Below, one piece after another: positions 14,950 to 59,968 of a DNA stretch of 64,000 nt (its first letter is position 1; the number at the start of each line of letters is the position of its first letter). The DNA comes from Rhizophagus irregularis (Eukaryota): the NCBI RefSeq assembly GCF_026210795.1, contig NC_089434.1, positions 4,340,001 through 4,404,000 on the forward strand, in the 5' to 3' direction. The position numbers and the translations under genes are program-made. The notes under the pieces are model-generated. The model saw nothing but the letters and a program-made list of their open reading frames with translations, ran no database searches and had not been told where the DNA came from.

Positions 14950-17733
14950 TATCTATTTTAATAATAAGTTTAAACCTTTTTCAGCTTCTTGGCATCCATT
15001 TTCTGCTGCTTTTTTGTACCAATAAATGGCATTCTCAACATTTTTTTCGGTTCCTTCTCCCCGTTCATATAAAGATGCGAGGTTGTATTGTGCATCAACA
15101 TTTCCTCCTTTTGCAGCCATTGTAAAATAATTAAATGCTTTTTCTTTATCAATAACGATTTGAATTCCATAATTATAAATATACCCAACTTTATATTGAG
15201 CAATTATATATCCTTGATCAGCCGATTTCTTATAGAATTCAAATGCTCTTGTTTCATTTTGACGAATACCTTTACCTAATTCATAAAATTCACCTAATTA
15301 ATACAATGCAATTTTATTGTCATTTTCTGCAGCTTTATGATACCAATAATTGACTTTGTCTAAATCATTCACTATTTCATCATCATTTTTAATAAAATTA
15401 ATTTGGATGTTTAGTATATAATTCAAACCCCTTTTCTTTATTAATTTCAGTTCCTATTCCATTTACGTAATAATATCCAAGTATAAATTTTGCACCTATA
15501 TATCCACTTACAGCCGATTTTTTATAAAATTCAAATGCTTTAATTTCATCTTTATTTACACCTTTTCCCAACTCATACCATTCTCCTAAATTATTTTGTG
15601 CAACTTCATCACCATTTTCTGCTGCTTTTTGGTACCAGTAAAGAGCTTTTTAATATCCCTATCAATTCCAATTCCACATGAATAATAATATCCAAGTTGA
15701 CATTGAGCATCTACATTACCTTTTCCAGCTAAATCTTTAACTAATTCAACCGCTTTTTTCTCATTTTTATCAACCCCTTTTCCGAATTGATAACATTTAC
15801 TTAAATTGTATTGTGCATTAGTGTTTCCTTTTTCAGTTGCTATACTATATAATTCAAATGCTTCTGATTTGTTAACTTCAGTTCCAATTCCTTTATCATA
15901 ATAATATCCAAGCTTAAATTGGGCATCTGCATTACCTTTTCCAGCTAAATCTTTTATTAATTCAAATGCTTTTTTCTCATCTTTATCAACTCCTTTTCCT
16001 AATTGATAACAGTTACCTAAATTGTATTGTGCACCAATATTCAGCAGCTGCTTTGTATAATTCAAATGCTTTTGATTTATTAATTTCAGTTCCAATTCCT
16101 TTTGAATAATAATATCCAAGTTGGCATTGAACATCTACATCACCCTTTTCAGCTAAATCTTTTATTAATTCAAATGCTTTTTTTCCATTCTTATCAACTC
16201 CTTTTCCAAATTGATAACAATTTGCAAGATTAAATTTTGCACTTGTATTTTCATTATTAGCTGCTTTCTGATACCAATACACTGATTTTATAGTATTTTG
16301 TGCAATTCCAATACCAAATTCATAGCAATTCCCTAAATAAAATTGAGTAATAATATTACCACTTTCTGCAGATTTTTGAAACCAATTAAATGCTAAATTA
16401 TGATTACATTCAATTCCATATCCACCATCATAATAACATTTTCCAAGATAAACTTGTGCAAATGAATAATTATTTTCAGATGCTTTTAAAAATAGTTCAT
16501 AATAAAGTAATCCAAGTAAATAAACATATTGTGGATTTACTTGATTAGATAGCCATTTAATGAGATCGTCCAAGCTTTGATTTAATTCTAATACTTGTTG
16601 ATTAATAAATTGCTTAATATCTTGAAAATTAATACCTTCCCTATCATGTTTGCTGTTTATTTCTTCAACTAAATTTTCAACAACTATATTGTTTACCTTA
16701 TCAAATGTCGACCCATATGAAAAATATTGATGAATTTGTTTGAATTGTTGTATTTGATAAATTTTTCTCAGCATCCATTAAATTTAATCCAGTATTTGAC
16801 ATCAATTCATTATTTAAATCCATGGTCCCAATTGATTCTATTAGTTGATTGTTTTCTTTTTCTTTATTAACAGTATCAATAACTATATCATCTTGTTTAG
16901 GAAATATTAGTTTATAAAGGATTGAAACGACATTTTGTATATTTGGGCGTTCATCTGGCTCATATAACCAACATTCTAGTTATTTAAATATTGTTAAACT
17001 TTCTTTCAAGAAATTTATTAATTTATAAAATTATTAATATAAATTACCTGTATACAAATTACTATACTCTTTAGGAGTATTATCAATAATTTCTTCTCGC
17101 TTTCCATTTGCTATGGATAAGATTAAGCTTACATCATAATTATAATTAAAAAATGGTCGACGGCCACTTGAAATTTGCCACATTAAAACTCCTATTCCAT
17201 ATACATCAGATTTTTTGTTTAATTTGTAACCTTGATCATTTAACTTTTTGGGGTCAATGAAAGGTATTACGCCAAGTATTTTTGATACATTGCTTGATAC
17301 CTCGGCGATTTTTTTTGATAAACCAAAATCCGTCAGTTCTAGATTTTTCTGATGTACAAGTATATTATCTGCATGCTATTATTATAAAGAATCTTATTTA
17401 GTAAGAATATAATCAAATAATCAAATAATCAAATAACAAATTACAAAGCTAATAATTTATTATTACCAGATCACGATGAATATTATTACAATCATGTAAA
17501 CATTCTAATGCAGTGGCTAGTTGAAATGCTAACTGATACTTATCGGTCCAAGTGAGTTCATTAAAATGCTCATTTAAATAAGTTTTTAATGTACCATTAT
17601 TAGCATATTCTAAGACTAACGAATATTTTTCTGGATACAAAGATTATATTAAAAATGAAGCTCATTCAATAATGTATAATATATATCAAACTTAAAACTT
17701 ACCATTTTCTACTTTCGTTATTCCATAAAACCG
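14950..17733 (-). pseudogene. Tyrosine-kinase-like kinase plus Sel1-repeat protein, 5'-truncated with frameshifts
   Basis: Exons give [58 protein letters not shown], then many Sel1 repeats (AQYNLGNCYQLGKGVDKDEKKAFE) in shifting frames; no start codon or Gly-loop exon found upstream of 17733. Confidence 0.85.
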
Positions 17734-30140: not shown

Positions 30141-33100
30141 TTAATTTTCATCTGTTTTAATATAATAAAATAAAATTAATTTTGTATAAATAATTGCAAG
30201 ATTAAATTTTATATGTACTATATTGCATACCTAATGACTTCAAGTCTTTAATCATATAATCATTCAAATTTTCACTTACTAGCATTTCATTTACTTCTTC
30301 ATTAGCTTGTAAATCTTCGCTTTCAAGAATTTCATTCAAGTTTTCACTAGTATTTTCAACTGCTTTAATATCTAAATAATCAAATAAATAATTCATTTTC
30401 ACATAAATAATTTGCAAGATTAATATTTTATATATTATAGTATATACCTAATATTCTCAAATCTTTAACCGCACAATCATTCAAATTTTCACTTTCAAGA
30501 ATTTCATTCAATTTTTTACTAGTAAAATCAAGTAAGCGACTTGTATAATATGCTTGTGAATGAGCTTCAATAGCAAGATTGCTATGCTGCCCAATTGGAG
30601 CATTTATAAATTCCATAATGTTGCTTTTTAATTCATCATCATCAGGACGACGGTAAATCCAATCCTTAATAACTTTTTTCACTTCTGAAGTAGATGGCCT
30701 TTTTAATGGATCTTCATTCCAACATTTTTTCATTAAATTTACATAACATTGTGGAGTATTTTCAATAATTTCAGGACGTTCACCTTTACAAATACTTAAA
30801 CTAAGTTGAATATCATGTGCTCTATTATTAAATGGTGGTACCCCAGATGTAAATTCCCACATAATCATAGAAAAACTATATATATCACTAGCTGGAGTGT
30901 AAAATTTGCCTCTTAAAACTTCAGGAGCCATAAATGGTATAACACCATAAATATCATACTTTTTCAAAAACGATTTTACAGGTTGACATAATCCTAAGTC
31001 ACTAATATAAATTTTATCCTTATTCTTATCATTATGATTTAAAATATTACCATCATGAAAATCACAATGAATAAGTTTTTCTCCATGTATCTTACTAAGT
31101 CCAGAAATAATATTGTACAACATATATAATTTTTGATTCCAATTAATTTCGACTATTCTTGTTAAATTTTCTCTTAAATTACCTTTATTTGCATACTCCA
31201 TTACTACCTTATATTTTGAAGTATTTGGATCTTCTGTGAATCCATAAACATTTATAATATCACCTGAAGATAAAACACTTGCATGATATTTCCACTATAA
31301 AAAATAATAATTATTATTATATACAAATAAATTTTAATTTAAATTAATAATAGAAAATAATATACTATCATACTTCTTTTAAAAATTCATTTAAATTTTC
31401 ATTTAAATTTTCATTTAAATTCTTGGGACATTTAAGAATTACTTCTTTATCTCCATTATCCTCTAACCAAGTAGCTTTGTATATAATACCAAATCCTCCT
31501 TCATTAAGATATTCAACATTTTTAAATTTGTTATGAGGAAACCATTTTAATCTATTTTTAACAATAAAATCATCCAAAATTGCATTTCCACTTTTTCCAA
31601 ATCTATAAATTTAAATAATTAAAATTATATTGTATATTGTATTATAATTTATACAAAATAATTTATTACTTACTCTAAAATTTAAATAGGAATTTAATGT
31701 AATATAAGTCTTAGTTTTTGGATAAATACATATAATAATCTATAATTTACAACTTACCAACTAAAGTAACAGATATTTTAAATGAAAGAATTAAATTAAC
31801 AAATAAATATTATATAAAATATATAACAATAGGAATACTTACAAGCTAGATCATAAATAATTTTTTAAATAAAGAAGTTAGATAGTTTAAATTATATGTA
31901 AATATTATAACAATAAGTAATAATAGAATTAAATAAATAACTTATAACTTACGATCTATTAAATAAATAAAGAAATTAGATAGTTTAAATTATATGTAAA
32001 TATTATAACAATAAGTAATAATAGAATTAAATAAATAACTTAAGACTTACCAACTAAAATAAATTACAAAATAATTTTTTAAATAAAGAAATTAGATAGT
32101 TTAAATTATATGTAAATATTATAACAATAAGTAATAATAGAATTAAATAAATAACTTACTCCCTATATTATTTAATAATTTTTTAAATAAAGAAATTAGA
32201 TAGTTTAAATTATATGTAAATATTATAACAATAAGTAATAATAAAATTAAATAAATAACTTACCATCTATAAAATAATTTTTTAAATAAAGAAATTAGAT
32301 AGTTTAAATTATATGTAAATATTATAACAATAAGTAATAATAGAATTAAATAAATAACTTATAACTTACGATCTATTAAATAAATAAAGAAATTAGATAG
32401 TTTAAATTATATGTAAATATTATAACAATAAGTAATAATAGAATTAAATAAATAACTTACCATCTATAAAATAATTTTTTAAATAAAGAAATTAGATAGT
32501 TTAAATTATATGTAAATATTATAACAATAAGTAATAATAGAATTAAATAAATAACTTACACCCTATGTTATTTAATAATTTTTTAAATAAAGAAATTAGA
32601 TAGTTTAAATTATATGTAAATATTATAACAATAAGTAATAATAGAATTAAATAAATAACTTACCATCTATAAAATAATTTTTTAAATAAAGAAATTAGAT
32701 AGTTTAAATTATATGTAAATATTATAACAATAAGTAATAATAGAATTAAATAAATAACTTACACCCTATGTTATTTAATAATTTTTTAAATAAAGAAATT
32801 AGATAGTTTAAATTATATGTAAATATTATAACAATAAGTAATAATAGAATTAAATAAATAACTTACCATCTATAAAATAATTTTTTAAATAAAGAAATTA
32901 GATAGTTTAAATTATATGTAAATATTATAACAATAAGTAATAATAGAATTAAATAAATAACTTATAACTTACAATCTATTAAATAAATAAAGAAATTAGA
33001 TAGTTTAAATTATATGTAAATATTATAACAATAAGTAATAATAGAATTAAATAAATAACTTACTCCCTATATTATTTAATAATTTTTTAAATAAAGAAAT

Positions 33101-34449
33101 TAAGGAAAGTAGTTTAAATTATATGTAAATATTATAACAATAAGTAATAATAGAATTAAATAAATAACTTACTCCCTATATTATTTAATAATTTTTAAAT
33201 AAGAAATTCGATAGTTTAAATTATATGTAAATATTATAACAATAAGTAATAATAGAATTAAATAAATAACTTAAGGCTACCAACTAAAATAAAATTTTAA
33301 AATAATTTTAAATAAGAAAGTTAGATAGTTTAAATTATATGTAAATATTATAACAATAAGTAATAATAGATTAAATAAATAACTTATAACTTACGATCTA
33401 TTAAATAAATAAAGAAATTAGATAGTTTAAATTATATGTAAATATTATAACAATAGTAATAATAGAATTAAATAAATAACTTAAGACTTACCAACTAAAA
33501 TAAATTACAAAAATAATTTTTAAATAAAAGTGAATGATAGTTTAAAATTATATGCTAAATATTTATAACAATAAGTAATAATAGAATTAAATAAATAACT
33601 TACACCTATATTATTTAATATAGATATCATATAACTTACACCCTGTAGTATTATTAATTATTAATTAGTTAGATATAAGATAATATAAAAGTATTTACTG
33701 TAAATTATATATATATTACTTACAATCTAGTTATTTAAATTAAGTATAATTAGTTGAATTATGTAAAATATTGAACAAATAAATATAATATATATATTGT
33801 AACTTACCATCTGTAATATAATTAATTATTATATAGTTATTTAAATAAAGAATTTAAGAACTTAGTTATTTGAATAATATGTAGAATAAGATAACTTACC
33901 AACTACAGTATTATTAATCATTAAATAAATTATTTTGTTATATAGAATACAATAAAAATAATAAGTAATTCATTATATTAACTTACAAGCTAAATATTTA
34001 ATAATTTTTATATAATATAGTTAGTTTAAATTATATTTGTAGTATTTGAGTTGTTTATAAATAAAAACTTAATACTTCATCTTGTTTGATATACCTTTAG
34101 ATTCCTTGGTATCACTTCCTTCAAATTCCTCAATATTACTTCTTTCAAATTCTTCAGTGCCACTTCCCTCAAATTCTCCAGTGCTACGTTCTTCAAATTC
34201 TTCTATATTACTGGAAACTAGTTTTGTTATATTGCAAATTTGGTTTAATTATGATTACAGTATTTACAATTAAATTATAAAATTCTTAATATTTCAACTT
34301 TGTTTTGTGTATTACATTTACCTTCAGATTCTTTGGTATTACACGAAACTAGTTTTATTATATTGCAAGTTTGTTTTAAAATTTGAATAATTCTAATTTA
34401 TATTACTATTCATGTTATATACTTTACCTTTATCAATACATTGACTCAT
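30141..34449 (-). CDS. Tyrosine-kinase-like protein kinase with an N-terminal micro-exon array
   Basis: Exons 34428-34449 (MSQCIDK), 34322-34348, 34095-34217, micro-exons in 31674-33989, 31374-31602 (EGGFGIIYKA, VILK), 30448-31294 (HCDFHDGN, SDLG, MAPE, SDIYSF), 30231-30371 and a last short exon ending TAA at 30141-30143. Splice phases are mutually consistent. Confidence 0.85.
31674..33989 (-). repeat. Tandem ~90-110-bp intron units separated by 3-nt micro-exons
   Basis: Each unit on + reads acttac-NNN-ct(a/g), i.e. (t/c)ag|NNN|gtaagt on minus; the homogeneous core units have a CTAAT branch-point-like motif upstream of the AG. Confidence 0.85.
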
Positions 34450-36413
34450 TATACCAAAATTCTCCCTAATTGTAAAAGATAAAGTAAATATCTTATTTTC
34501 TTTTTTTATTATTATTAAACGCCTTTATTAGTATAAATATGGTAACAATATTTATGCAAAATACATTATGTGCAAAAATGGTGATCACAAGTACAAGTAT
34601 TGCATCATTGCAAACAAACCAGAATGTTGATCAATTAATCATTTCATCTTAAGCAATTATTAAGCACCAATGAAATAATTATCATTCATTTTTATATAAA
34701 ATTAGTTAGTTTACTTATTTTTATTTTTATTGTATTATTTTATTATATTGTTTTTAAATAAATTACAGCACTTTGAAACAAAAAAAAAAATCAACAATTC
34801 CTTTCAATAATTATTAACTTTTTTCAAAATGTAATTTTATTAAATTATAAATAGTTTTATAATGTTAGACATTAAAATAAATAATTTAATTTATGATTTG
34901 CCAACCATAGAATACATCTATGTAATAAAACAATAACCTGATGCTTCTCACTATTAAAAAGTTTTGAAATAAAATATAAAGTTATAAAAAAAAAGCATTC
35001 CAATTAAAGTGCATAATTATGGTATCACATGAATTTCAGCCACCTCCTTTTTACAAATATAAGATCATATTTCCTAATGGCTAAATTTTTGCAATTTTCC
35101 AAATTTAATTAGTAATCAGCAAAATTTTGTTCTGTATTACACTTATCATTTTATGTCACTATGGTGAAATTATGAATTTTTTAATTATCAAAATTTATAT
35201 TAATAAATGCTTGACAATCAGGCTAAATTAAGTTATATAGGTGAAAATTTTTGAGTAATGCTAGGGTCATCCACCCATACGATCAACTGGCATTTATATT
35301 TATATTTTTTTTTTGAAAAAAATTGTGAGATAGAAATAATGCTAGAGGCTGTGAATACCTGATTTTTGATTACTAAAGCTAATATTTTTTTTTTCTTTTT
35401 AAATTTTTTCTTCTTTTCTTTAATATTGCTTAACCATTATTTTTTTTTTATAAAAAAAAGTAATTAAATTTTTTCTTCTTAGATCCAGTTGGAAATCTAC
35501 ATATAAGCATACTGAATTGAATCAATAGACACTGAATTTTTATCTTCTTTTTTAATGATAATTGATTATTAATTAATTTTTTTCTAAAAAAAATTTTTTT
35601 ATCATTCTAAACAATAATGATCTAAACAATCAAATTCCTGTATATGTGATTATTTATATACATATGACCAATAATATTGGTAAAACTAATTAATTTGCAG
35701 ATGAAAAATAATTTTATCAACAATAACTACAGTCAACTCTCTTTATAGTCACACATTTGGAACAGTCCATATTTGGTGATTATAAAGAGATGTGACTATA
35801 TAAAGAATTTCTTATATTTGTATATCATAATTCTGGCCAAAAATTAACATAATTTTAGCCAGAATTATACTTAAAACTTTATTGTATCGTAACTTCGCCA
35901 ATATTAATCGTAGAGAGATGATCTTACCGCCATTTGATTCGTCTTGATGAGACGGTTCTAATGGTATAAAATACGTCGAAATCCAATCACTAGATTAATT
36001 TCCGAAATTAAAAAAATATTAATGGTTTTTGTGTAATAACTCTGTCAATATTGATCCTAGAAAGACGATCTTACTACCATTCGATTCGTCTTGATGAGAC
36101 GAATCTAATGGCATAAGATACATCGAAATCCAATCACTAGATCAATTTCCGAAATAAAAAATATTAAATGGTTTTTAAGTAATTACTCCGTCAATATTGA
36201 TCACAGAGAGATGAGCTTACCATCATTCGATTCGTCTCGATGAGGCGATTCCAACGAGCTATAAATCGTCATTTTACAATCACTAGGTACCGAGAAATCT
36301 AGCAAAATGTTAATGGCGCAGTAAACGTAAATCAAGAAATATTATAATGCCGATGTTTAACATTTTGTTGAATAACTCGTCAGTCAGTGATCGGAAAAGG
36401 ATAAAACTACCAC

Positions 36414-37645
36414 TAGGGTTGGTCACCCTATCTCGGTGGTTAATCACTGAGACCCTCATTAAGCCTGAGTATGGTGAGGTCGCAGGTTCGATTCCCTTGA
36501 CCACGGAAATAAAAAAGAATTTTACTGCGGACGCTACAACCAATAGCGTGAAGGTACAGGGATTAGTGTAGTTGGACTGCATCATGGTGAATTAGTGTGT
36601 ACGGTTAGGCCGCACATTTCAACTAAGGGTCATAGTGTCCTTCTAACGTTCCCTATGAGGCCATTGGCATGTGCGCAGTCCTGTCCTTAAGGTCACTACT
36701 ATACCTTGGGGGGACTTCCTGTCTGGGTGGTCACTCCACGATACCACTTGAAGTCAGTAATGGCTAGATGGTCGTCCTAGATGGTAAAGCTGAGAGTGCA
36801 ATGTTTTAGTGGTAGTTAGACCTTCTGTTAGGTCTTAGACCAACCAAGGTGTTCGTGCACAGAACAAGTAGCATGGTTATGGGGTTCGATTCCTATTCCT
36901 TGGGTCCTGGTTGGTGATCCCTGATGGTTGATACCCACCATAAGGGGTGATCCTAGACAGATGCCTGCTACTTCCTGTCCAAATGGTCACTACAAAGTAT
37001 ACCACTTGGGTAAACAACTGTACTATCGGTGCTAGGTAATCGTGGGCTGTAGTGGCCTTTAAGTGAGACTTAGTACCTAAAATGGTGGTATGGAAGGGTA
37101 CTAAATGGTTGATGTTACCTGTCGAAAGTCCTCCATGAAAGTAGGTGCTCTCTAAAGGTCGTAAAATAAATTGAGTACCAGTATCATGCAATGGGTATAG
37201 GATGAGTAGGCGGCGTGTACCTAGCTTCAGATCAGCCTAAAGTGGCCCGATGGGGGATGTCTTCTCTAGTGGTGCTGTTACCTGAGGAATTAAGTACTCG
37301 GTATAATGGTTGCCCAATGAAGATGATAGGACTAAGGTTGCTTGTCTAAACCTCTTCAAAATCCTACGATTAGTTTCGTCAAAATTTTACTATAGATTTA
37401 TTATAGTTTCAGCAGAGTTTTGGCAGTTTCGGCATTTATAATAAGTTTCGGCAGTTTCACCTTTTTCCAAAGTTTCGCCAGTTTTTTAATATAACTTTAA
37501 TATAGTTTCGGCAGAATTTTGCTTTTTGGCGAAATGCCATCTTGCCTAAACCCCTAGGTTTCGGCAAGCAACCTTAGATAGGACACAGACCTGAGATTAG
37601 TCTCAAAAAGAGGCAATGGGTGGTCTGGCCATAAACACTAGCAAA
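36414..37645 (+). mobile_element. GC-rich SINE-like retro-insertion with tRNA-like head
   Basis: Flanked by the 21-bp direct repeat ggaaaaggataaaactaccac (36393-36413, 37646-37666); B-box-like GGTTCGATTCC at ~36485 and again at ~36883; no convincing ORF. Confidence 0.65.
37333..37576. mobile_element. hAT-type MITE nested in the SINE-like insert
   Basis: TIRs taaggttgcttg / caagcaacctta, perfect 8-bp TSD gataggac, internal gtttcggca repeats. Confidence 0.9.
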
Positions 37646-48826: not shown

Positions 48827-50028
48827 TGTAAACGGTCGAATATCAAGCACGAAAAGATGATAAAATTCAACTACCAAACGTAATTGCCAAATGTTAAGAA
48901 CGAACAAATTAATTATGAATTGGCGTAGATGGATAAATAATTAGCCGAAAAGGATAAACATTTAGGAAGAGTAATGATCTACATGATGTAATATTTATCA
49001 AATGATTGACAAAGAACCAATAGGATAAATAGAGTCGATCAATTGGGGCTTAGCAATCTTTAACAATAAGAACGATAAGAAAGAATAATTATAAGCCACA
49101 AAAGATAGGTTATAAGCAAAACACATAAAGCAAGTTAAAAGAACATATAAAATAATGTCAGAAAGATTAAAGAACATAAAATAATATAAAAGATAATATA
49201 AAAAGATAGTATAAAGATGGAACGTAAAAGATAATATATTAAAAAGAACATATATAAAAAGATAATATATTAAAAAGAACATATATAAAAAGATAATATA
49301 TTAAAAAGAACATATATAAAAAGATAATATATTAAAAAGAACATATATAAAAAGATAATATATTAAAAAGAATATATAAAAGATAACATATTAAAAGATA
49401 GCGTATTTAAAATATAGATAGCATATTAGAAAGATAGTTCAAAGATAATATGTAAAAAGAATATAAAAGATAGTATATAGATAGAATAGAAAGTAGCATA
49501 AAATTTGTATAAATAGAGAACGGAATTCAAAGTAATTCCACAGTTCTCATCCACAGAACTCAATAAAAATATAAGTTTCATTTAATTATGTGTTAGTAAA
49601 GTTTAATGTTAATTAAAGGTAATAGGTTCGCCCTAAACTTTAATTAATGTTCGCTTAATTAATTTTAATTAAATAAATGAAAATTTTAAGATGAATTAAA
49701 TATATGTTTTTGAAAAGTAATAATTCGTAGCGAGAGCTATCGAATTTTGAAATTAAAGATAAAAGTGGATATAATTTGGGAAAATTTAGAGAAGTTAATT
49801 TTATTTTATATCGTTCAACGTTTTATATTACTAACGCTATTTATGTTATGAACCAAGAATGTTGTTGTATGTTGTTCGTTGATTATGTTGTTTGTTAATT
49901 ATGCTGTTGATTATTCGCTTGTTCATTTATTTGTTTGTTCGTTCGTTCATTCGTTCGTTCGACCATGAGAATGCCCTTTCGATGTGGCAACTCTGTAAAT
50001 TGATGACAGAGGGAATTGGGGGATCTCA
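48827..50028 (+). repeat. 5' LTR (1202 bp)
   Basis: tgtaaacggtcg...ggggatctca; contains a 31-bp tandem repeat with one more copy than the 3' LTR. Confidence 0.95.
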
Positions 50029-50030
50029 TA

Positions 50031-50045
50031 TGGTGCATGCTCGCA
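50031..50045 (+). promoter_or_regulatory. Primer-binding site
   Basis: TGGTGCATGC.. begins 2 nt after the 5' LTR; TGG is complementary to tRNA CCA. The tRNA identity is not determined (Gly is a guess). Confidence 0.7.
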
Positions 50046-51518
50046 AGAAAGGAAATGATCATCATCACATGATTATTATTATAATGAATATGAAAATTTA
50101 ATTTCGTTAGTAAGTCACTGATAGGTATTATTAATCAATATTTTATTTTAGAATTTATTTTTAGATTTCAGGTTTTAACGAGTTCAAAAGGAACCAATAA
50201 ATCAATAAGGATTTAATCGAGTTAGAAACTTGAAAAGGTGAAAGATTGGAGTTTGTTGTTGTGCAAGTAATCATTTAATCGATAGAAAGCACAAGAATAT
50301 TTCTTTCGGGAATAAAGTACCTGAGAAATTTTATAAGGAGATGTAGAAGCGAAAGATGAATTTTGGAATAAAGATTAATAATGGGAGAACACCAATGTAT
50401 TATCTGGGGTTCATCTGTGTAGTATGGGTTACCTCTAAGCTTGAATTTTGGATAAATGCTCTAGATTGGAAAATTTTTATTCTTCGACATTAAGGATTAT
50501 AACGTATGGGTTACGTCAAATCTGGATACCCAGCTCAATAATGCGCAAATTGCTTTGGGGACGGGGAACGAAAATTGTAAAGACACCTACTATCAAGAAA
50601 CATTGAATGGATAAAATGGGACAAACCTGTAAACTATCATGCTTTTACCCAATGGGAAAAAGATAGAGATAAGTCCAGTATAGGTCCACCAATTTGAGGA
50701 AAGATAAGTTGGTTTAGATGAGTTTTATGGATAGCTGATGACTTTTGAAACTGGATTTTGGAAGGTTAGATTCACCCGTTAAGAGACGAGTCAGCCAACG
50801 AAAGAAGAAAAGATGGATATGTTGTGTTGTTACAGGCTTTAGGCTACATTTCAGATGAGGATCCTGGTGTAGTGTGCTAAATCACGTTTTCATTACAACG
50901 TTCCGTTGAAAGAAGATAACATAGAAGGATATTTACACATTAACGAGCCGTATAATGAACATTACGTACAGTATTTAATAATAGAATAAAATCCGGAAAG
51001 AAGGACATTCGTTTAAAAAGGATATTTATTTAAAAGAAGAACATTTATTTGAAAAGAAGAATATTTATTTGAAAAGAACGACATTTTGCGTACTATAGAT
51101 TAATTTATATAATATAGAATATATAGTAAGAAGGATTTATGTGGACGATAAGAAAGATGGAAAATTCGCAAACTTTAAAAGTTATGAAAATTTTGGAGTT
51201 TGTGATATGTGATATGTGAGATTATGGATCTTGGTGACAAGAGATAAACTTTGTGGAGCAGTAAAAACCTCCGCAGTCTGAGGAGATCGTGGACCTAGAA
51301 TAATTTTTGGAAATTTTGAGGCGCAGTAAAAATTAATAGTAAAATATGGCATAGTAAATATATAAAACCGAAAGATGGAATTTAAAGATTGAAAGAAGCA
51401 ATCTATTTAAAGATAAAAGAATGTTTGGAAGATTGAAAATAGAAACGATAAGAGTGAAATATATATATATAAAAGGAGGTGAGATTTTAGTTAAGATTCT
51501 GGATGAACGATTACAACG

Positions 51519-52829
51519 ATGGAATGGTATGAAACTTGGAGGGTTGATTACGAAAACCACAAATTAAGACATGACGAAAATATCGGAAATGTAGATATAG
51601 ACGAATTAAGAGGAGAAAATATAACATGTGAAATATGTTATCCAATAAGAAATACACCAGAAGTTTTCAAGAAATTTTGGAAAATATTGCAAAAATTTGA
51701 ATATACGATAAAAGATTATAACGCAGAAACTATAAGAGCGTTATTAAATTTATTAAGTATAGATAGTGAAGAAAGAAATAATTATACAAAAGGAAGGACT
51801 AGAGATGCATTAGATGTAATGGTCGAATCGATAAGATACTTGAAACAACCAGTATTAAGAGAAAAAGGATTAAAGATAATAATAATAGTAATCGTGAGAG
51901 ATTGTATAGAGAATGATAAAGAAGATGAAACAATGGACAGATTAATAGGGAACGAAGAATTAATAAGATATGGTTATATTTTGGAAAATTGGGATGTGAA
52001 TATAAGATTTGGGGAATTTTATGAATGGTATAAAGAAGCTATAACAGATTTTATAGAATGTAAAGATAGCACTATTAGAAGATACAAAAATATATTGTAT
52101 GAGGAAGCAGAATTAAAAGAAGATGAGTCAATAGAAAAAATAGAAGCGTTCAAACAAAAGATTAGATCGATGTTGAACACAATGTACGTAAAAGGTCATG
52201 GTGGAGGAATTGCGAAAGAAGTAATTGAAAAAGTTTATGATAAGATTAGGGGGTTTGAACAATTAAATATAGATGAAACAGATAGTGATGACACACCAAG
52301 AAGTTATACTATAACAGAAACAGACGATGGGGAAGAAGAAAGTTTACCAATTAGTAAAAATGAAGAAATGTCAGATGAGGAATCTGATGAATCTAATGAA
52401 TCTAATAATGTTGAAAAAACAGAAACAACAAAGATATTCAAAGAAATAATTAGAATGGATTTGAAAAGAATGGGTTATGATGTAGAAATAACAGAAATTG
52501 AAAGAATAAGAAAATTTGGAGTAACCGCAAAGATAATAACAACGTACGAATTTATGAAGAAATATTTAACAATATGGAATCTTGAAGATGAAGAATTAGA
52601 TGAACAAATATTACAATGGAGAGTTGAAAATACAAAAGAATGCGAAAGATGTGAAATTGAAAGATTAAAGAAAGAATTTAAAATTGGAGAAGAAATTTGC
52701 GTAGAATGCGAGAAAGATGTTGAAAAAGAAGATCCAACGGATGACGAAGAGGAAATGGAAGAGGATATAAAAAAACCCGAAATTGGCTCAAGTAAAAAAC
52801 CAAAAGTAAAGAGAAAAATAAAAAATTAA
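51519..52829 (+). CDS. Extra retroelement ORF upstream of gag, unknown function
   Basis: 436-aa open frame inside the element; H-x3-H..CxxC near the N-terminus, CERC..CVEC near the C-terminus, acidic tracts, basic tail KKPKVKRKIK. Confidence 0.75.
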   Translation: MEWYETWRVDYENHKLRHDENIGNVDIDELRGENITCEICYPIRNTPEVFKKFWKILQKFEYTIKDYNAETIRALLNLLSIDSEERNNYTKGRTRDALDVMVESIRYLKQPVLREKGLKIIIIVIVRDCIENDKEDETMDRLIGNEELIRYGYILENWDVNIRFGEFYEWYKEAITDFIECKDSTIRRYKNILYEEAELKEDESIEKIEAFKQKIRSMLNTMYVKGHGGGIAKEVIEKVYDKIRGFEQLNIDETDSDDTPRSYTITETDDGEEESLPISKNEEMSDEESDESNESNNVEKTETTKIFKEIIRMDLKRMGYDVEITEIERIRKFGVTAKIITTYEFMKKYLTIWNLEDEELDEQILQWRVENTKECERCEIERLKKEFKIGEEICVECEKDVEKEDPTDDEEEMEEDIKKPEIGSSKKPKVKRKIKN

Positions 52830-52885
52830 AGGAAGTACCTATAATACCAATAATACCAGCACCACCAATAAAACTGAAGATAACA

Positions 52886-54622
52886 ATGGCAGTAACAAGA
52901 GATGAATTCAGAACAGATATAAGAGCAGTAACGAATACTATGTATGGTCATGATATTGGGCCAGATTGGAACAATTTAGCAGTACCACCAATAACATTGA
53001 CAGGATTACAAGGAGAAGTTCAAGCGAATACTAATGCAATAGGAAATTTAAACGCAAATAGGGGAGCTATTGTGGAAATACCAGCATTTTATGGTACCAG
53101 TGGAGAAGATCCAGAAGAATGGGCAGATAAATTTGAGGAGACATTTACAGCGAATGGTTTAGGGAATGATGATGCACAGAGATTTAGAATAGCAAAAGCG
53201 AGATTAATGGGAGGAGCAGCAGATTGGTTAAAGACTGAAGGAGTAAATATTGTCGATTGGAATGTTAATGGAGATCATAATTTAAGATTAAGAGAAAGAA
53301 TAATTGGAAAGTATGCAAGTGATGAAATTAAAGATAGATGGCTAGAACAATTAGAAAAGATTAGACAGGGAGACGAGAATGTAACTCAATACCTTACGAG
53401 ATTTAAGTATATGTTAAAGAGAGCGGGAGGTGATGCAGCAGTAGCAGCAAATCAGCAAAAGAGAATTTTTAATAGAGGATTAAAACCAGACTTTACTAAA
53501 GACGTAGTAATGGGAAATCCAGCAGATTTAAACGCAGCATTTCAGATAGCAAAAAACGTAGAAAGAGGTTTAGAAGCATTAACAGATAAAGTACAACCAA
53601 AAGAAATTAATGATGAACAAAGAAGACAAGGACCTATTGTTCAAGGGAATGTAAGGAATAATAGAGAGGTAAATGTAGATGAATTAACAAGCAGTTTTGC
53701 GAAGTTACAAATTAAGATATTAGAAGATGAGAATGAAAGATTAAGAAATTTAGCGAGTCAGAGTTATAGGCAATTGCCACAAAGAAACCAACCAACACAA
53801 AGAAATCAACCAATTCAAAGAAATCAGTCATTCCAAAGAAGGGTACTGACATGTTTTACATGTGGTAGAATTGGTCATTATTCAAGAGAGTGTCCGGAGA
53901 AAAGAAGGAATGTAAGAGTGAATATGATGGACGAATACAATGACCAAGAGGAATACGATTATAATGGATATGAATGTGAGGAACCACAATACGGTGAAAT
54001 GTATTATACACAAGGTTATTACGATGATTATGAAGATAGGGAATTAAATTACTATAATGAGTTATACGCAAAAGATAACGCAGTAAAACCAAGAAGACAA
54101 TCAAGAAGGACGAATCCAATAGTAGGATATAAAAATAATAATGAAGAAGGAAATCTACAAGAAGAATTAAGAGAGGCAGGAAATAGGATGGATGATAGAG
54201 AAATACCAAGTGGAACAACAGGATACACGCCTGAATGGACAGAACAAAATAATGTATACAAAGATAGTCAAAATTGGGACAATCCAATAGGACCGGAAAA
54301 TTATAATTATGGTCATCGACCTATGACAAAAGATGGAAGATTTTATAAACCAATGTTCACAAAAGGAGGCAAAGTATTCTACCCCGGAATGCGACAAGAC
54401 GAATCTGGAGAATGGGCTAGAACAAAGCCATCAGGAACAGGAAAACCCAGAGTATATGGACCGAGATTAACAGATGAAATACCACCTTACGATATTGTAG
54501 GAGACGTAAAAAATTGTAGAGCAAATATAACATATGGACAATTAATAAATGAGAATACTAAGTATCATAAGCAATTGAGAGAAGGAACATATAGACCAAG
54601 GAGCATAAATGAGAAAAATTGA
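52886..54622 (+). CDS. gag: Gag
   Basis: FYGTSGEDPEEW, IRQGDENVTQYLTRF (major-homology-like), zinc knuckle CFTCGRIGHYSREC. Confidence 0.92.
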   Translation: MAVTRDEFRTDIRAVTNTMYGHDIGPDWNNLAVPPITLTGLQGEVQANTNAIGNLNANRGAIVEIPAFYGTSGEDPEEWADKFEETFTANGLGNDDAQRFRIAKARLMGGAADWLKTEGVNIVDWNVNGDHNLRLRERIIGKYASDEIKDRWLEQLEKIRQGDENVTQYLTRFKYMLKRAGGDAAVAANQQKRIFNRGLKPDFTKDVVMGNPADLNAAFQIAKNVERGLEALTDKVQPKEINDEQRRQGPIVQGNVRNNREVNVDELTSSFAKLQIKILEDENERLRNLASQSYRQLPQRNQPTQRNQPIQRNQSFQRRVLTCFTCGRIGHYSRECPEKRRNVRVNMMDEYNDQEEYDYNGYECEEPQYGEMYYTQGYYDDYEDRELNYYNELYAKDNAVKPRRQSRRTNPIVGYKNNNEEGNLQEELREAGNRMDDREIPSGTTGYTPEWTEQNNVYKDSQNWDNPIGPENYNYGHRPMTKDGRFYKPMFTKGGKVFYPGMRQDESGEWARTKPSGTGKPRVYGPRLTDEIPPYDIVGDVKNCRANITYGQLINENTKYHKQLREGTYRPRSINEKN

Positions 54623-55135
54623 CTACACTCAGTGGGAACTATGAAAAATGAGGAAAAAATAACTACAGCAATGAGAACGGAATTAGAAGTTGAAGATCAA
54701 TTAGTGAATGTAATAATAGATACTGGAGCAGCAGTAAGCGTGATAACAGATAAATTAAGAAGAAGATTGAATATACCTATATTTGGAAAAAGTAAATTTA
54801 GATGTACAATAGCAAATGGGCAAAAGATAGTAGCATTAGGAAAGGCAAATATAACTTTAAGATACAAAGATGAATTAGAGATATTAAAAGAAGTTGAAGT
54901 GATCAATTCAGAAGAAGATGATCTAATTTTGGGAAATGACATATAGAAGTTGTATAACACAAAAATAAATTTTGAAGATCATACCTTAAGAATAGAAGAA
55001 CAGGGAGAAATAATAACGATTCCAGTAGGATATGAAAGAGAAGTAGCATATGAAAGTGAGAAGAGTGAGGACGATGAAGAATATGAAAGTAACGATGAAG
55101 AAGAGGTATTCAAAATGCACCAGAATTTTAAATAG
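54623..55135 (+). CDS. Retroviral-type aspartic protease, in frame with gag, with an internal TAG
   Basis: VIIDTGAAVSVI and LILGND motifs; TAG at 54944-54946, after which the same frame continues to 55135. Confidence 0.85.
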
Positions 55136-55170
55136 AAAGTCTTGGCTCTGAAGAGAGAGAGACGGAAAAG

Positions 55171-57252
55171 ATGCTCGAACCAAGTGAAAAATTTATGCAA
55201 AAATTAAGTATAGGGAAAGTAGAAGAACCAATTTGGGAAAATATGGTAAAATTACTATTAGAATACCAAGATATTTTGGAATACGATGAGGAAATAGAAG
55301 GAAGAACGAAAGCAGCGCAACATGAGATAAAAATAAAAGATGGGGTAGAACCAATAAAGCAAAGAAGATATAAAGAAACAGATGAAAAGGCAAAATTTAT
55401 AAGCGAAGAAGTAGATAAATTGTTAAAACAAGGAAGGATAAGGAAATCAAAAAGTCCATGGAGTTCACCGGTTACATTAGCAGGAACAAAAACGGGAAAA
55501 TATAGATTCTGTATTGATTACAGAAAGTTAAACAAAATAACTATAATGGATAGTTTTCCTTTACCAAGAATGGATGAATTGTTAGACAAATACAGAAAAG
55601 CAAAATGGTTTTCAAGTATAGATTTAGCGGCAGGATTTAATCAGGTAGAAATGAAAGAAGAAGACAAAGAAAAAACAGCATTTGTATGTTCGAAAGGATT
55701 GTTTGAATATAATGTAATGCCGTTCGGTTTAACGAATGTACCAGCAACATTTCAAAGATTAATGAATGAAATATTAGAAGAATACATAAACGATTTTGTA
55801 GTAGTATATATCGATGATATTATGATATATTCAGAAAATTTAAAAGACCATATGGAACATGTGGAAAAAGTATTAAAGAAGTTACAGGAGAATAATTTAA
55901 TAATAAAATTAAAGAAATGTAGATTTTTGGAAAGAAACATAGAATTTTTAGGACATATAGTAGGAAATGATGGATTAAGGCCAGACGATAAAAAGATAGA
56001 AAAGATAAAAGAAATGAAGGCACCAACAACAGTGAAAGAAGTAAGATCATTTTTAGGACTTTGTTCATATTACAGAAAATTTGTGAAGAATTTTTCAAAG
56101 ATAGCAAGACCAATAAGTGATTTGAGAAAGAAGGGAATACCTTTCATTTGGGGAAGAGAACAACAAGAAGCGTTTGAAAAATTGAAAGAAAAGTTAATAC
56201 AATATCCAATATTGCGACATCCAGATTGGAAGAAAGAATTTCTATTAATAACAGATGCATCAGGAAAAGGATTAGGTGCAGTATTAAGTCAAAAAGATGA
56301 AAAAGGAAAAGAAGTAGTAATAGCATATGCAAGTAGAAGCTTATTACCAGCAGAAGAAAATTATCCGATAACAGAATTGGAATGTTTAGGAATAGTTTGG
56401 GGAATTCAACATTTTCATAAATATTTGATCGATAGAAAATTTAAAGTAATAACAGATCACAATGCATTAAAAGGATTAATGAATGCAAAGATACCAAAAG
56501 GAAAAAGAGCAAGATGGGTGATGGAATTACAGCAATATAATTTTGAAGTAATACATAGATCAGGAAAAGAAAACACGAATGCCGACGCATTAAGTAGGTT
56601 ATTGAAGATAGTAGAGGATCAACCAGAAATAGTAATAATCGACAGAGTAGATGGATTAGGAAAAACAAGTATAGTACAAAATTTAATTAGAGAATGGGAA
56701 AAACAAGGATTAAAAGTAAGATTCAATACCTATAAAAGGAGAAGAAAAGATAAAGATGAATTTTATGAATCAAAGATGGAGACGGAATGGAAATTCAGAA
56801 AAGAAGTAGTGGAACAAATAAACAGAAGAATGTTAGAATATGATGAAGATACAGATATAATAATTTTAGACAAATCACCATATTGTGAATATTATTATCA
56901 AAAGACGAAAAGTTTTGACAGAGGATTAATTACTCCACATGGAAATCATGAGATGGAAAAAGAAATATTCAGATTGAAAGAAACAATAGATAAATCTATA
57001 GTGATATTTTTAGAAAAAGATGGTGATGTATGTTGGAAAAATTACATCAGAAGAGAAACGAAGAAAACGGAAAAATCATCATATCCAACATTAAAGAAGG
57101 ATGAATATTTGGACATGGTTAAAATGTTTGAAGAAAATCAGAGCGTGTACAAAAATACCAAAAGATACAGTCGAGTAAAAGTTAAAAATGACGATAATAG
57201 CTGGAGAAAAGTATTTAAAGAGGTGGAGAAATGGAGAAAAGCACAGAACTAA
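55171..57252 (+). CDS. pol: Reverse transcriptase-RNase H fused to a P-loop nucleotide-kinase-like domain
   Basis: RFCIDYRKLN, MPFGL, YIDD, TDASG, ELECL, NADALSR; then IVIIDRVDGLGKTS and ILDKSPYCEYYYQ. Confidence 0.92.
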   Translation: MLEPSEKFMQKLSIGKVEEPIWENMVKLLLEYQDILEYDEEIEGRTKAAQHEIKIKDGVEPIKQRRYKETDEKAKFISEEVDKLLKQGRIRKSKSPWSSPVTLAGTKTGKYRFCIDYRKLNKITIMDSFPLPRMDELLDKYRKAKWFSSIDLAAGFNQVEMKEEDKEKTAFVCSKGLFEYNVMPFGLTNVPATFQRLMNEILEEYINDFVVVYIDDIMIYSENLKDHMEHVEKVLKKLQENNLIIKLKKCRFLERNIEFLGHIVGNDGLRPDDKKIEKIKEMKAPTTVKEVRSFLGLCSYYRKFVKNFSKIARPISDLRKKGIPFIWGREQQEAFEKLKEKLIQYPILRHPDWKKEFLLITDASGKGLGAVLSQKDEKGKEVVIAYASRSLLPAEENYPITELECLGIVWGIQHFHKYLIDRKFKVITDHNALKGLMNAKIPKGKRARWVMELQQYNFEVIHRSGKENTNADALSRLLKIVEDQPEIVIIDRVDGLGKTSIVQNLIREWEKQGLKVRFNTYKRRRKDKDEFYESKMETEWKFRKEVVEQINRRMLEYDEDTDIIILDKSPYCEYYYQKTKSFDRGLITPHGNHEMEKEIFRLKETIDKSIVIFLEKDGDVCWKNYIRRETKKTEKSSYPTLKKDEYLDMVKMFEENQSVYKNTKRYSRVKVKNDDNSWRKVFKEVEKWRKAQN

Positions 57253-57312
57253 AAATATAGGATACATAACAAAAATAACAAATTTAGAAGTAGAATCAAT
57301 TAAAGAAATATT

Positions 57313-58557
57313 ATGGGAGAAAATAATTACAAGAGTATAATAGACAATATTGAAAAAGAGAATAAGTATGAATTGAAAGAGGGAATTTTATATAGAGTGA
57401 AAGGACAAAACAAATTTAGAGTAATCAGGGATTTTGAATACGAAGGATTAATGTATATGATGCATGATAATGAATTATCAGGACATTTTGGGATAGAAGC
57501 GACATTAGATAGAATAAAAGAAAATTATTGGTGGAAAAATATGAAGGAAGATGTAGAAGAATATGTAAAGACATGTTGGAATTGTCAGATGAGAGGAAAA
57601 CCAAGAGGAAAGAACGAATTAACGTCAATAAAGATAAATGAACCATTCGAGATGATTGGAATAGATATAGTTGGACCATTAAAAGAGACAGAAAAGGGAA
57701 ATAAGTATATTGTAGTAGCAATGGATTATTTTACAAAATGGCCCGAGGCCGCACCACTAAAAGAAGCTACGGCTAAAGAGGTAGTAGAATTTATTTGGAA
57801 GGACATAATTTGTAGACATGGGTATCCAAAGAAAATAATTAGTGATAGAGGGACTCACTTTAACAATAAAATGATGGAAGAATTAGTAGAAAGATGTGGG
57901 ATAAATCATAGATTAAGTACACCATATAGGCCACAAATGAATGGTTTGGTCGAAAGATTCAATAAAACTTTATGCGAGGGATTAGCCAAATTAGGAGAAG
58001 AAAATTGGGATAAACATATACCATCTGTATTATTTGCATATAGAACAAGGAAGCAATCATCAACAAAAATTAAACCTTTTTACGCGACATACGGAAGGAG
58101 AGCAAAACTACCATTAGATAAGGATGAAAATAAGATAACATTAGCTGATAGAGTAAAAGTACTAATTGAGGAGCTACCGGTAATAAGAAGAAAAATAAAA
58201 GAAAATGTGAAAGAAGCTCAAGAGAAACAAAAACAACAACATGACGAAAGAGGAATTAGAAAACCTAAATTTGAAATAGGAGAAAAAGTATTATTATATG
58301 AAGCATGGAGAGAGAAACAATGGTCTGGAAAATTGCAGAACAAATGGAAAGGACCATATTTAATTCACGAAGAATTTGGAAACGGAGCATATAAACTCAA
58401 AGAATTAGACGGAAGAATATTGAAAACACCACAGAATGGAGAATGGTTAAAGAAATTTTATAATCGGGAGAGATTTACACCAAAAATAGTAATTAAAGGA
58501 AAAGAGGTATTCGATAAGGGGAGTTACACATATCACGTAATATTCATTTTATTATAA
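57313..58557 (+). CDS. Integrase (HHCC, DDE core, GPY/F), separate ORF
   Basis: H..GHFG..CWNC, GIDIVGP, SDRGTHF, NGLVERFN, KWKGPY. Confidence 0.93.
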   Translation: MGENNYKSIIDNIEKENKYELKEGILYRVKGQNKFRVIRDFEYEGLMYMMHDNELSGHFGIEATLDRIKENYWWKNMKEDVEEYVKTCWNCQMRGKPRGKNELTSIKINEPFEMIGIDIVGPLKETEKGNKYIVVAMDYFTKWPEAAPLKEATAKEVVEFIWKDIICRHGYPKKIISDRGTHFNNKMMEELVERCGINHRLSTPYRPQMNGLVERFNKTLCEGLAKLGEENWDKHIPSVLFAYRTRKQSSTKIKPFYATYGRRAKLPLDKDENKITLADRVKVLIEELPVIRRKIKENVKEAQEKQKQQHDERGIRKPKFEIGEKVLLYEAWREKQWSGKLQNKWKGPYLIHEEFGNGAYKLKELDGRILKTPQNGEWLKKFYNRERFTPKIVIKGKEVFDKGSYTYHVIFILL

Positions 58558-58699
58558 ACCTTACCCCCCCCTCCTGTTAGATTTCATAACCAATCAAATT
58601 ATAATATTTATAAATCATATGATTTAAATAAGTGTAACGTAAAATTTTAACTACCCCCTCCCCCCCTATAATAATTACATAATATGTGTAAGCTCCCTA
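58516..58699. mobile_element. Small MITE-like inverted repeat (PIF/Harbinger-like) at the integrase 3' end
   Basis: aggggagttacacatat ... atatgtgtaagctccct with taa on both sides and internal C-runs; composition differs from the purine-rich element strand. Confidence 0.55.
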
Positions 58700-58784
58700 A
58701 GACCCGAGTTCGATTCGATTAAAATTATTATGGATAAGACACGAGTTCGATTCTATTAAAGTTATTTGTGAGGTCACAAATAGC

Positions 58785-58794
58785 GAAGGGGGGA
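58785..58794 (+). promoter_or_regulatory. Polypurine tract
   Basis: gaagggggga 3 nt before the 3' LTR. Confidence 0.85.
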
Positions 58795-58797
58795 TAA

Positions 58798-59968
58798 TGT
58801 AAATGGTCGAATATCAAGCACGAAAAGATGATAAAATTCAACTACCAAACGTAATTGCCAAATGTTAAGAACGAACAAATTAATTATGAATTGGCGTAGA
58901 TGGATAAATAATTAGCCGAAAAGGATAAACATTTAGGAAGAGTAATGATCTACATAATGTAATATTTATCAAATGATTGACAAAGAACCAATAGGATAAA
59001 TAGAGTCGATCAATTGGGGCTTAGCAATCTTTAACAATAAGAACGATAAGAAAGAATAATTATAAGCCACAAAAGATAGGTTATAAGCAAAACACATAAA
59101 GCAAGTTAAAAGAACATATAAAATAATGTCAGAAAGATTAAAGAACATAAAATAATATAAAAGATAATATAAAAAGATAGTATAAAGATGGAACGTAAAA
59201 GATAATATATTAAAAAGAACATATATAAAAAGATAATATATTAAAAAGAACATATATAAAAAGATAATATATTAAAAAGAACATATATAAAAAGATAATA
59301 TATTAAAAAGAATATATAAAAGATAACATATTAAAAGATAGCGTATTTAAAATATAGATAGCATATTAGAAAGATAGTTCAAAGATAATATGTAAAAAGA
59401 ATATAAAAGATAGTATATAGATAGAATAGAAAGTAGCATAAAATTTGTATAAATAGAGAACGGAATTCAAAGTAATTCCACAGTTCTCATCCACAGAACT
59501 CAATAAAAATATAAGTTTCATTTAATTATGTGTTAGTAAAGTTTAATGTTAATTAAAGGTAATAGGTTCGCCCTAAACTTTAATTAATGTTCGCTTAATT
59601 AATTTTAATTAAATAAATGAAAATTTTAAGATGAATTAAATATATGTTTTTGAAAAGTAATAATTCGTAGCGAGAGCTATCGAATTTTGAAATTAAAGAT
59701 AAAAGTGGATATAATTTGGGAAAATTTAGAGAAGTTAATTTTATTTTATATCGTTCAACGTTTTATATTACTAACGCTATTTATGTTATGAACCAAGAAT
59801 GTTGTTGTATGTTGTTCGTTGATTATGTTGTTTGTTAATTATGCTGTTGATTATTCGCTTGTTCATTTATTTGTTCATTCGTTTGTTCATTCGTTCGTTC
59901 GACCATGAGAATGCCCTTTCAATGTGGCAACTCTGTAAATTGATGACAGAGGGAATTGGGGGATCTCA
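58798..59968 (+). repeat. 3' LTR (1171 bp)
   Basis: Near-identical to the 5' LTR, with a handful of substitutions and one 31-bp unit fewer. Confidence 0.95.

Follow-up and report, generated by a model that had tools for sequence, protein, structure and literature searches.

On the minus strand of a 64,000-nucleotide stretch of AT-rich eukaryotic DNA from Rhizophagus irregularis (the window), a protein kinase gene contains 23 exons of three bases each that are followed by an exon of a single base. In the reading favoured here, held with moderate confidence, these exons form a spliced one-codon-per-exon array that belongs to a large Rhizophagus kinase family. Unequal recombination between near-identical introns is likely to have expanded and reordered the middle of the array, so that the encoded segment would differ chiefly between genes and probably less between transcripts.

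The three-base exons are distributed from 33989 to 31758 and each is positioned between AG and GT. As stated in a preliminary description of this DNA, only seven triplets are used by all 23 exons: TTG and ATG (five each), GGT, ATC and GGA (three each), and CTT and ATT (two each). The donor sequence GTAAGT is present at 22 of the 23 exons; at 33283-33281 it is changed to GTAGCC. A search of the 64-kb window for the pattern TAG-NNN-GTAAGT identified 20 occurrences, all 20 of them inside the array, compared to a chance expectation of 0.44. When the two-base remnant listed in Table 1 is left out, the joined model of 29 exons forms one open frame of 445 residues. The micro-exons account for 70 of the 1338 coding bases and about 24 of the residues.

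Table 1. Features of the kinase gene and its micro-exon array, with positions given in window coordinates.
Feature	Position	Strand	Evidence
Exon 1 (22 nt) with the start codon, followed by a phase-1 intron	34428..34449	-	Paralog reads splice the equivalent exon to exon 2
Exon 2 (27 nt), flanked by phase-1 introns	34322..34348	-	RNA depth, loose read ends
Exon 3 (123 nt), flanked by phase-1 introns, encodes an acidic linker rich in Glu, Ser and Gly; the array starts behind its donor	34095..34217	-	RNA reads exit exactly at 34095
Five 3-nt exons (33989, 33902, 33810, 33726, 33642) that paralogs also keep; their introns are unrelated	33640..33989	-	Paralog reads, 16/17 predicted letters
2-nt remnant of a GG-class cassette, 3' of a 34-nt intron-like spacer	33604..33605	-	AG and GTAAGT flanks
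Core of 17 homogenised introns (88-111 nt); its 16 three-base exons fall into four classes (TTG, ATC/ATT, ATG, GGA/GGT), order apparently random	31846..33603	-	Sequence comparison
Final pair of 3-nt exons (31845-31843, 31760-31758), which a paralog transcript also keeps	31758..31845	-	RNA
1-nt exon (A) between a phase-1 and a phase-2 intron	31674	-	7 RNA reads; loci L001, L002
Kinase N-lobe exon with Gly-rich loop and catalytic Lys, preceded by a phase-2 intron	31374..31602	-	Homology
Main kinase exon, PF07714	30428..31294	-	E 1.2e-33

A Pfam analysis of the three largest exons returned kinase families only, with PF07714 (PK_Tyr_Ser-Thr) as identified in Table 1; neither a NACHT nor an ankyrin domain was found by Pfam in these exons. 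The catalytic loop reads HCD instead of HRD and is of the non-RD type. In plants and animals, kinases of this type are associated with recognition signalling. The best matches to the kinase exon are Rhizophagus irregularis proteins with 80-85% identity, and 1921 proteins were retrieved at E ≤ 0.001. Thus, the gene is a member of the Rhizophagus tyrosine-kinase-like (PF07714) family, which is very large at 2,533 members according to the accessible text of PMC10234402. By inspection, the amino terminus is acidic and polar and a signal peptide is not evident. The predicted product is a cytoplasmic kinase composed of an acidic linker, followed by a stretch of approximately 24 residues in which Asp, Gly, Tyr, Phe and Trp are abundant, and then the kinase. 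Transcripts and gene models of the paralogs begin with Met-Gly-Gln-Cys, a possible start for myristoylation or palmitoylation. Residue 2 is Ser in the present copy (34428-34449), which has lost this possible lipid-anchoring start.

The array is held in phase 1 by the three ordinary exons upstream of it. Joined in this phase, no pair of triplets creates a stop codon, while six pairs do so in phase 2. A phase-2 reading of the array was ruled out since it yields stops. Read in phase 0, as gene finders have chosen for the paralogs, the array becomes a hydrophobic run of 23 residues that resembles a membrane helix; this reading was ruled out by the upstream exons and the RNA junctions, both of which are in phase 1. 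The preliminary description held that all introns are in phase 1 and that the frame is always kept. The first statement is correct within the array; the one-base exon lies just outside the region originally described, and the intron behind it is in phase 2. The second statement applies to the three-base exons and not to their neighbours, as skipping of the one-base exon or inclusion of the two-base remnant (GT), which lies within the region originally described, results in a frameshift. If the donor of the remnant were used from the preceding exon, a stop would be encountered. The remnant itself may be a consensus error.

Two polyA RNA runs carrying the species label under which the locus is best represented were aligned to both flanks of the array, using about a quarter of each run. 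The mapped RNA originates mostly from paralogs, with an identity of at least 99% in 15 of 194 and 18 of 250 reads at the 5' flank. At the donor that opens the array, 63 reads of one run and 78 of the other leave the genomic DNA and continue with the predicted triplets. All 13 letters after this donor match the predicted join in one group of 15 reads, and the consensus pooled from run X23 matches it at 16 of 17 letters. At the other end, 56 reads at the acceptor at 31602 carry the one-base exon and the last two triplets (7/7 letters) before they diverge, and the diverging middle includes a run of GGC. The 71-nt intron behind the one-base exon (31603-31673) is exactly removed in 7 reads. This exon, one base between AG and GT on which the frame depends, is present in RNA, mostly that of paralogs. 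The outer micro-exons and the one-base exon are real, are spliced in phase 1, and are common to the family, as observed in RNA that is mostly paralogous. Reads that lack the last intron extend into the intron preceding the one-base exon (31603-31730) and have the appearance of intermediates in which the last intron is excised first. In the X15 reads (one of runs X15-X20, each with a small share of the locus), the junctions were not covered. A metagenome scan reduced 457 candidate stretches to four loci. None of the four contains a full array; however, two of them (L001 and L002) also present the one-base exon as AG-A-GTAAGT.

The loose ends of the reads bear on how the exons are combined. In gene-specific read groups (8-21 reads per group), the loose ends agree with one another at 0.91-1.0 over the first four to nine micro-exons, which is read as mostly complete inclusion of those exons. 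In pooled read groups, agreement is only 0.65-0.72, and either a mix of paralogs or skipping would fit. The pooled groups leave some room for a combinatorial use of the array, in which core exons are skipped in many combinations and one gene gives rise to a large set of peptides. Such a use has its attractions, as the three-base exons are all symmetric, no pair of them produces a stop, and in principle 15 residues and as many as 2.5 million distinct ordered subsets could be reached. The near-identical introns could also blur the choice of splice site, and there is precedent in the truffle NACHT-ankyrin genes (PMC9815663, as far as its accessible text goes) and in the schistosome micro-exon genes. 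Despite these points, the explanation is considered unlikely given the agreement within the gene-specific groups over the first micro-exons. Furthermore, skipping of the last three-base exon alone leads to TAA at the one-base exon, such that an inclusion of 70% would leave about 21% of transcripts stopped there.

Gene models of the paralogs were examined for the same architecture. Among the 343 public proteins compared from homolog and representative searches, none presents the phase-1 reading; instead, 20 read through the donor of the one-base exon. Nine models that read through this donor with at least 15 residues before it were assembled as a set. In eight of them, 21-53 residues resemble micro-exon arrays read in the wrong frame, and judging from their sequences these segments are probably micro-exon arrays. 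The ninth model, P0027, is not array-like and was dropped. A comparison of the reads and gene models indicates that the ends of the array are kept among paralogs and that the middle differs, with the segment varying in length and make-up. Some gene models join the acidic exon directly to the kinase. From two other sequencing runs, 613 and 329 DNA contigs map to the 5' part of the locus; the locus is not spanned by any contig, and 0.56 of its words are present in the run that represents it best. The suggestion in the preliminary description that the array is a diversity generator is thus borne out by the differences in segment length and make-up between paralogs, but is not supported as splicing diversity, in view of the agreement within the gene-specific read groups over the first four to nine micro-exons.

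It had also been stated that no order or subset of these exons can produce a stop and that the alphabet is stop-proof under any skipping or reshuffling. In phase 1, this amounts to the absence of any triplet starting with AA, AG or GA. The three-base exons conform among themselves; at the one-base exon, the seven of the 23 that end in T would give TAA if joined to it. The expectation by chance was derived from a background of 0.245 for AA, AG and GA starts, calculated from 2163 codons of seven ORFs in the window. A stop-proof alphabet would arise with a probability of 0.32 from four independent founders, 0.14 from seven, and 0.045 from eleven, the last being the maximum allowed by the cassettes (seven unique exons plus four core classes). 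Treating all 23 exons as independent lowers the value to 0.0016 and wrongly counts copies. Fully spliced mRNA already holds three of the four junction types in which T comes first, which are the risky ones.

The paralogs do not adhere to such an alphabet. Their reads include the triplets AGA and AAA after TTG, a position at which skipping might create a stop, a further argument against skipping in many combinations. In the eight gene models retained, implied AA or GA starts account for 29 of 272 residues, about half of the 0.21 background and found in six of the models. Some residues of P0022 that lie outside the array were counted as well, which makes two-fold a lower bound for the depletion. 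While this shortage is of the kind that exon skipping would favour, it represents a bias toward avoidance and not a rule, and either amino-acid preference or splice-site context could explain it equally well. With a stop possible at the one-base exon, chance probabilities of 0.05-0.32, and stop-capable triplets in use among paralogs, the idea of a stop-proof design is weak. The absence of stops among the three-base exons is mostly a consequence of the open frame and the small number of founding cassettes, and perhaps of the loss of shuffled alleles that made stops.

A comparison of the core introns suggests how the array was assembled. A 49-base middle is identical in 13 of the 17 introns. The acceptor tail varies with the class of the exon downstream, down to one base separating GGA from GGT, and a 7-base duplication in the donor marks the TTG and ATC/ATT classes. 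It had been noted that each class has its own splice-site flanks around a near-identical intron middle, which is accurate for the middles and the acceptor tails and less so for the donors, as the ATG and GGA/GGT cassettes share one donor variant. With respect to order, 10 of 16 class neighbourings are present, against 11.1 under random order (P 0.31). Since amplification of a single block would yield far fewer class neighbourings, several breakpoints in the intron middles are likely. The intron middles, the class-linked acceptor tails and the random-like order support the earlier proposal that unequal crossover shuffles whole cassettes at the DNA level via near-identical introns, as far as can be read from one array and a single allele.

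A class order indistinguishable from random would equally be expected if an old, constitutively spliced micro-exon linker were drifting in cassette number like a minisatellite, its variable residues being free of selection. The genome is AT-rich and full of tandem repeats, the kinase family is very large, and there are gene models in which the acidic exon leads directly into the kinase, all of which would fit such drift. Neutral expansion of this type is nevertheless rather improbable. The frame is open with 22 of 23 donors perfect, the outer micro-exons and the one-base exon are kept and spliced across paralogs, and the triplets retain their own acceptor tails, which pure homogenisation would have erased.

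The five core introns nearest the 5' end hold most of the private changes and a cluster of one-base losses, and three of them are without a branch-site motif. These changes may reflect decay or consensus error. Taken with the two-base remnant, the changed donor, the 34-nt spacer, the Ser at residue 2 where paralogs have Gly, and a locus that is spanned by no contig, they could indicate that the order or number of the core cassettes is partly an artefact of assembly or that the gene copy is decaying. The other twelve core introns have almost no private changes and the frame is open, making this explanation very improbable. Since the architecture is common to the paralogs, an artefact could alter details only.

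If the array varies from gene to gene by unequal recombination as favoured here, the unit of exchange would be a cassette made of an acceptor tail, three bases and a donor. From the anatomy of the array, crossover or conversion at any point within the middle that the introns share would add, remove or swap approximately one residue with the frame kept. The outer micro-exons and the one-base exon form a constant border on either side of the variable middle, as seen in paralog RNA. As a best guess from sequence, the segment may act as a variable docking or sensing part that decides which partner activates each kinase. A more ambitious version is a codon-resolution shuffling system, with the homogenised introns as recombination handles and single residues of the sensing segment added, dropped or swapped between alleles, paralogs or the nuclei of this multinucleate fungus. 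Splicing would be a second layer, and each kinase would acquire its own self/non-self or partner specificity. This extension is put forward tentatively and is doubtful at present.

The closest known system is the set of 3-bp mini-exons in truffle NACHT-ankyrin genes. In the Tuber melanosporum NACHT-ankyrin NLR family, dozens of 3-bp mini-exons are reported to be alternatively spliced (Iotti et al. 2012, as cited in the accessible text of PMC9815663). The layout is similar and includes a mycorrhizal fungus, an expanded signalling family, dozens of codon-sized exons (23 here) and a proposed role in diversifying a recognition segment; however, the kinase gene is not a member of that group. The array resides in a gene for a tyrosine-kinase-like kinase that lacks NACHT and ankyrin domains, its position is N-terminal, and the organism belongs to Glomeromycotina and not Ascomycota. 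Where alternative splicing was described for Tuber, the evidence from the kinase gene points to shuffling of cassettes at the DNA level. The micro-exon genes (MEGs) of Schistosoma also contain runs of very small symmetric exons whose skipping keeps the frame (PMC4350168, from the text accessible). MEGs are mostly micro-exonic, occur only in flatworms and have demonstrated alternative splicing; their products carry a signal peptide and are secreted or membrane-anchored. Thus, the kinase gene is MEG-like in layout and, with the small micro-exonic share given above, is not an MEG by the measure of a mostly micro-exonic coding region. The high-internal-similarity repeats of fungal NLRs (WD, ANK and TPR) resemble what is proposed for the array, in that a variable segment is reordered by unequal crossing over of near-identical units. 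The NLR repeat unit is coding and tens of residues long (PMC9815663), whereas in the kinase array the homology resides in introns and the coding unit is one codon.

Exons of one nucleotide have been described in Fusarium CYP621A and Arabidopsis APC11 (PMC12940212) and in 13 genes of Coprinopsis cinerea (PMC12230235). Like the exon at 31674, those covered in the accessible parts of these papers bridge phase-1 and phase-2 introns and are missed by gene finders. Unlike them, the present exon closes a long array of three-base exons and is common to a kinase family. No report of micro-exon arrays in Rhizophagus kinases was found in the openly accessible literature searched, which included the text of PMC10234402 and PMC3886924.

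The kinase repertoire of Rhizophagus is enormous and unexplained. If one branch of these kinases has a variable segment encoded at one codon per exon, current gene models are wrong in that segment and have hidden a candidate source of diversity in signalling or recognition. It would also place exon shuffling at its lower limit, with one codon per unit. A single array is of a size that is accessible by PCR.

Several other features were observed in the window. A second kinase gene with Sel1-like repeats (14953-17375) is apparently broken into several frames, and the three-base exon pattern is absent from it. At 35890-37400, a 147-bp tandem repeat precedes a stretch that is richer in GC and has no long ORF. 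A Ty3/Gypsy-type LTR retrotransposon with gag, reverse transcriptase (RT), RNase H and integrase is located at 48900-59940 between blocks of an 81-bp satellite, and its long terminal repeats are found at about 48.9-50.0 kb and 58.9-59.9 kb. An unassigned ORF of 440 aa (51507-52829) is present upstream of gag. The RT/RNase H frame (55132-57252) has approximately 200 extra residues at its carboxy terminus that have no Pfam match and contain a P-loop-like motif.
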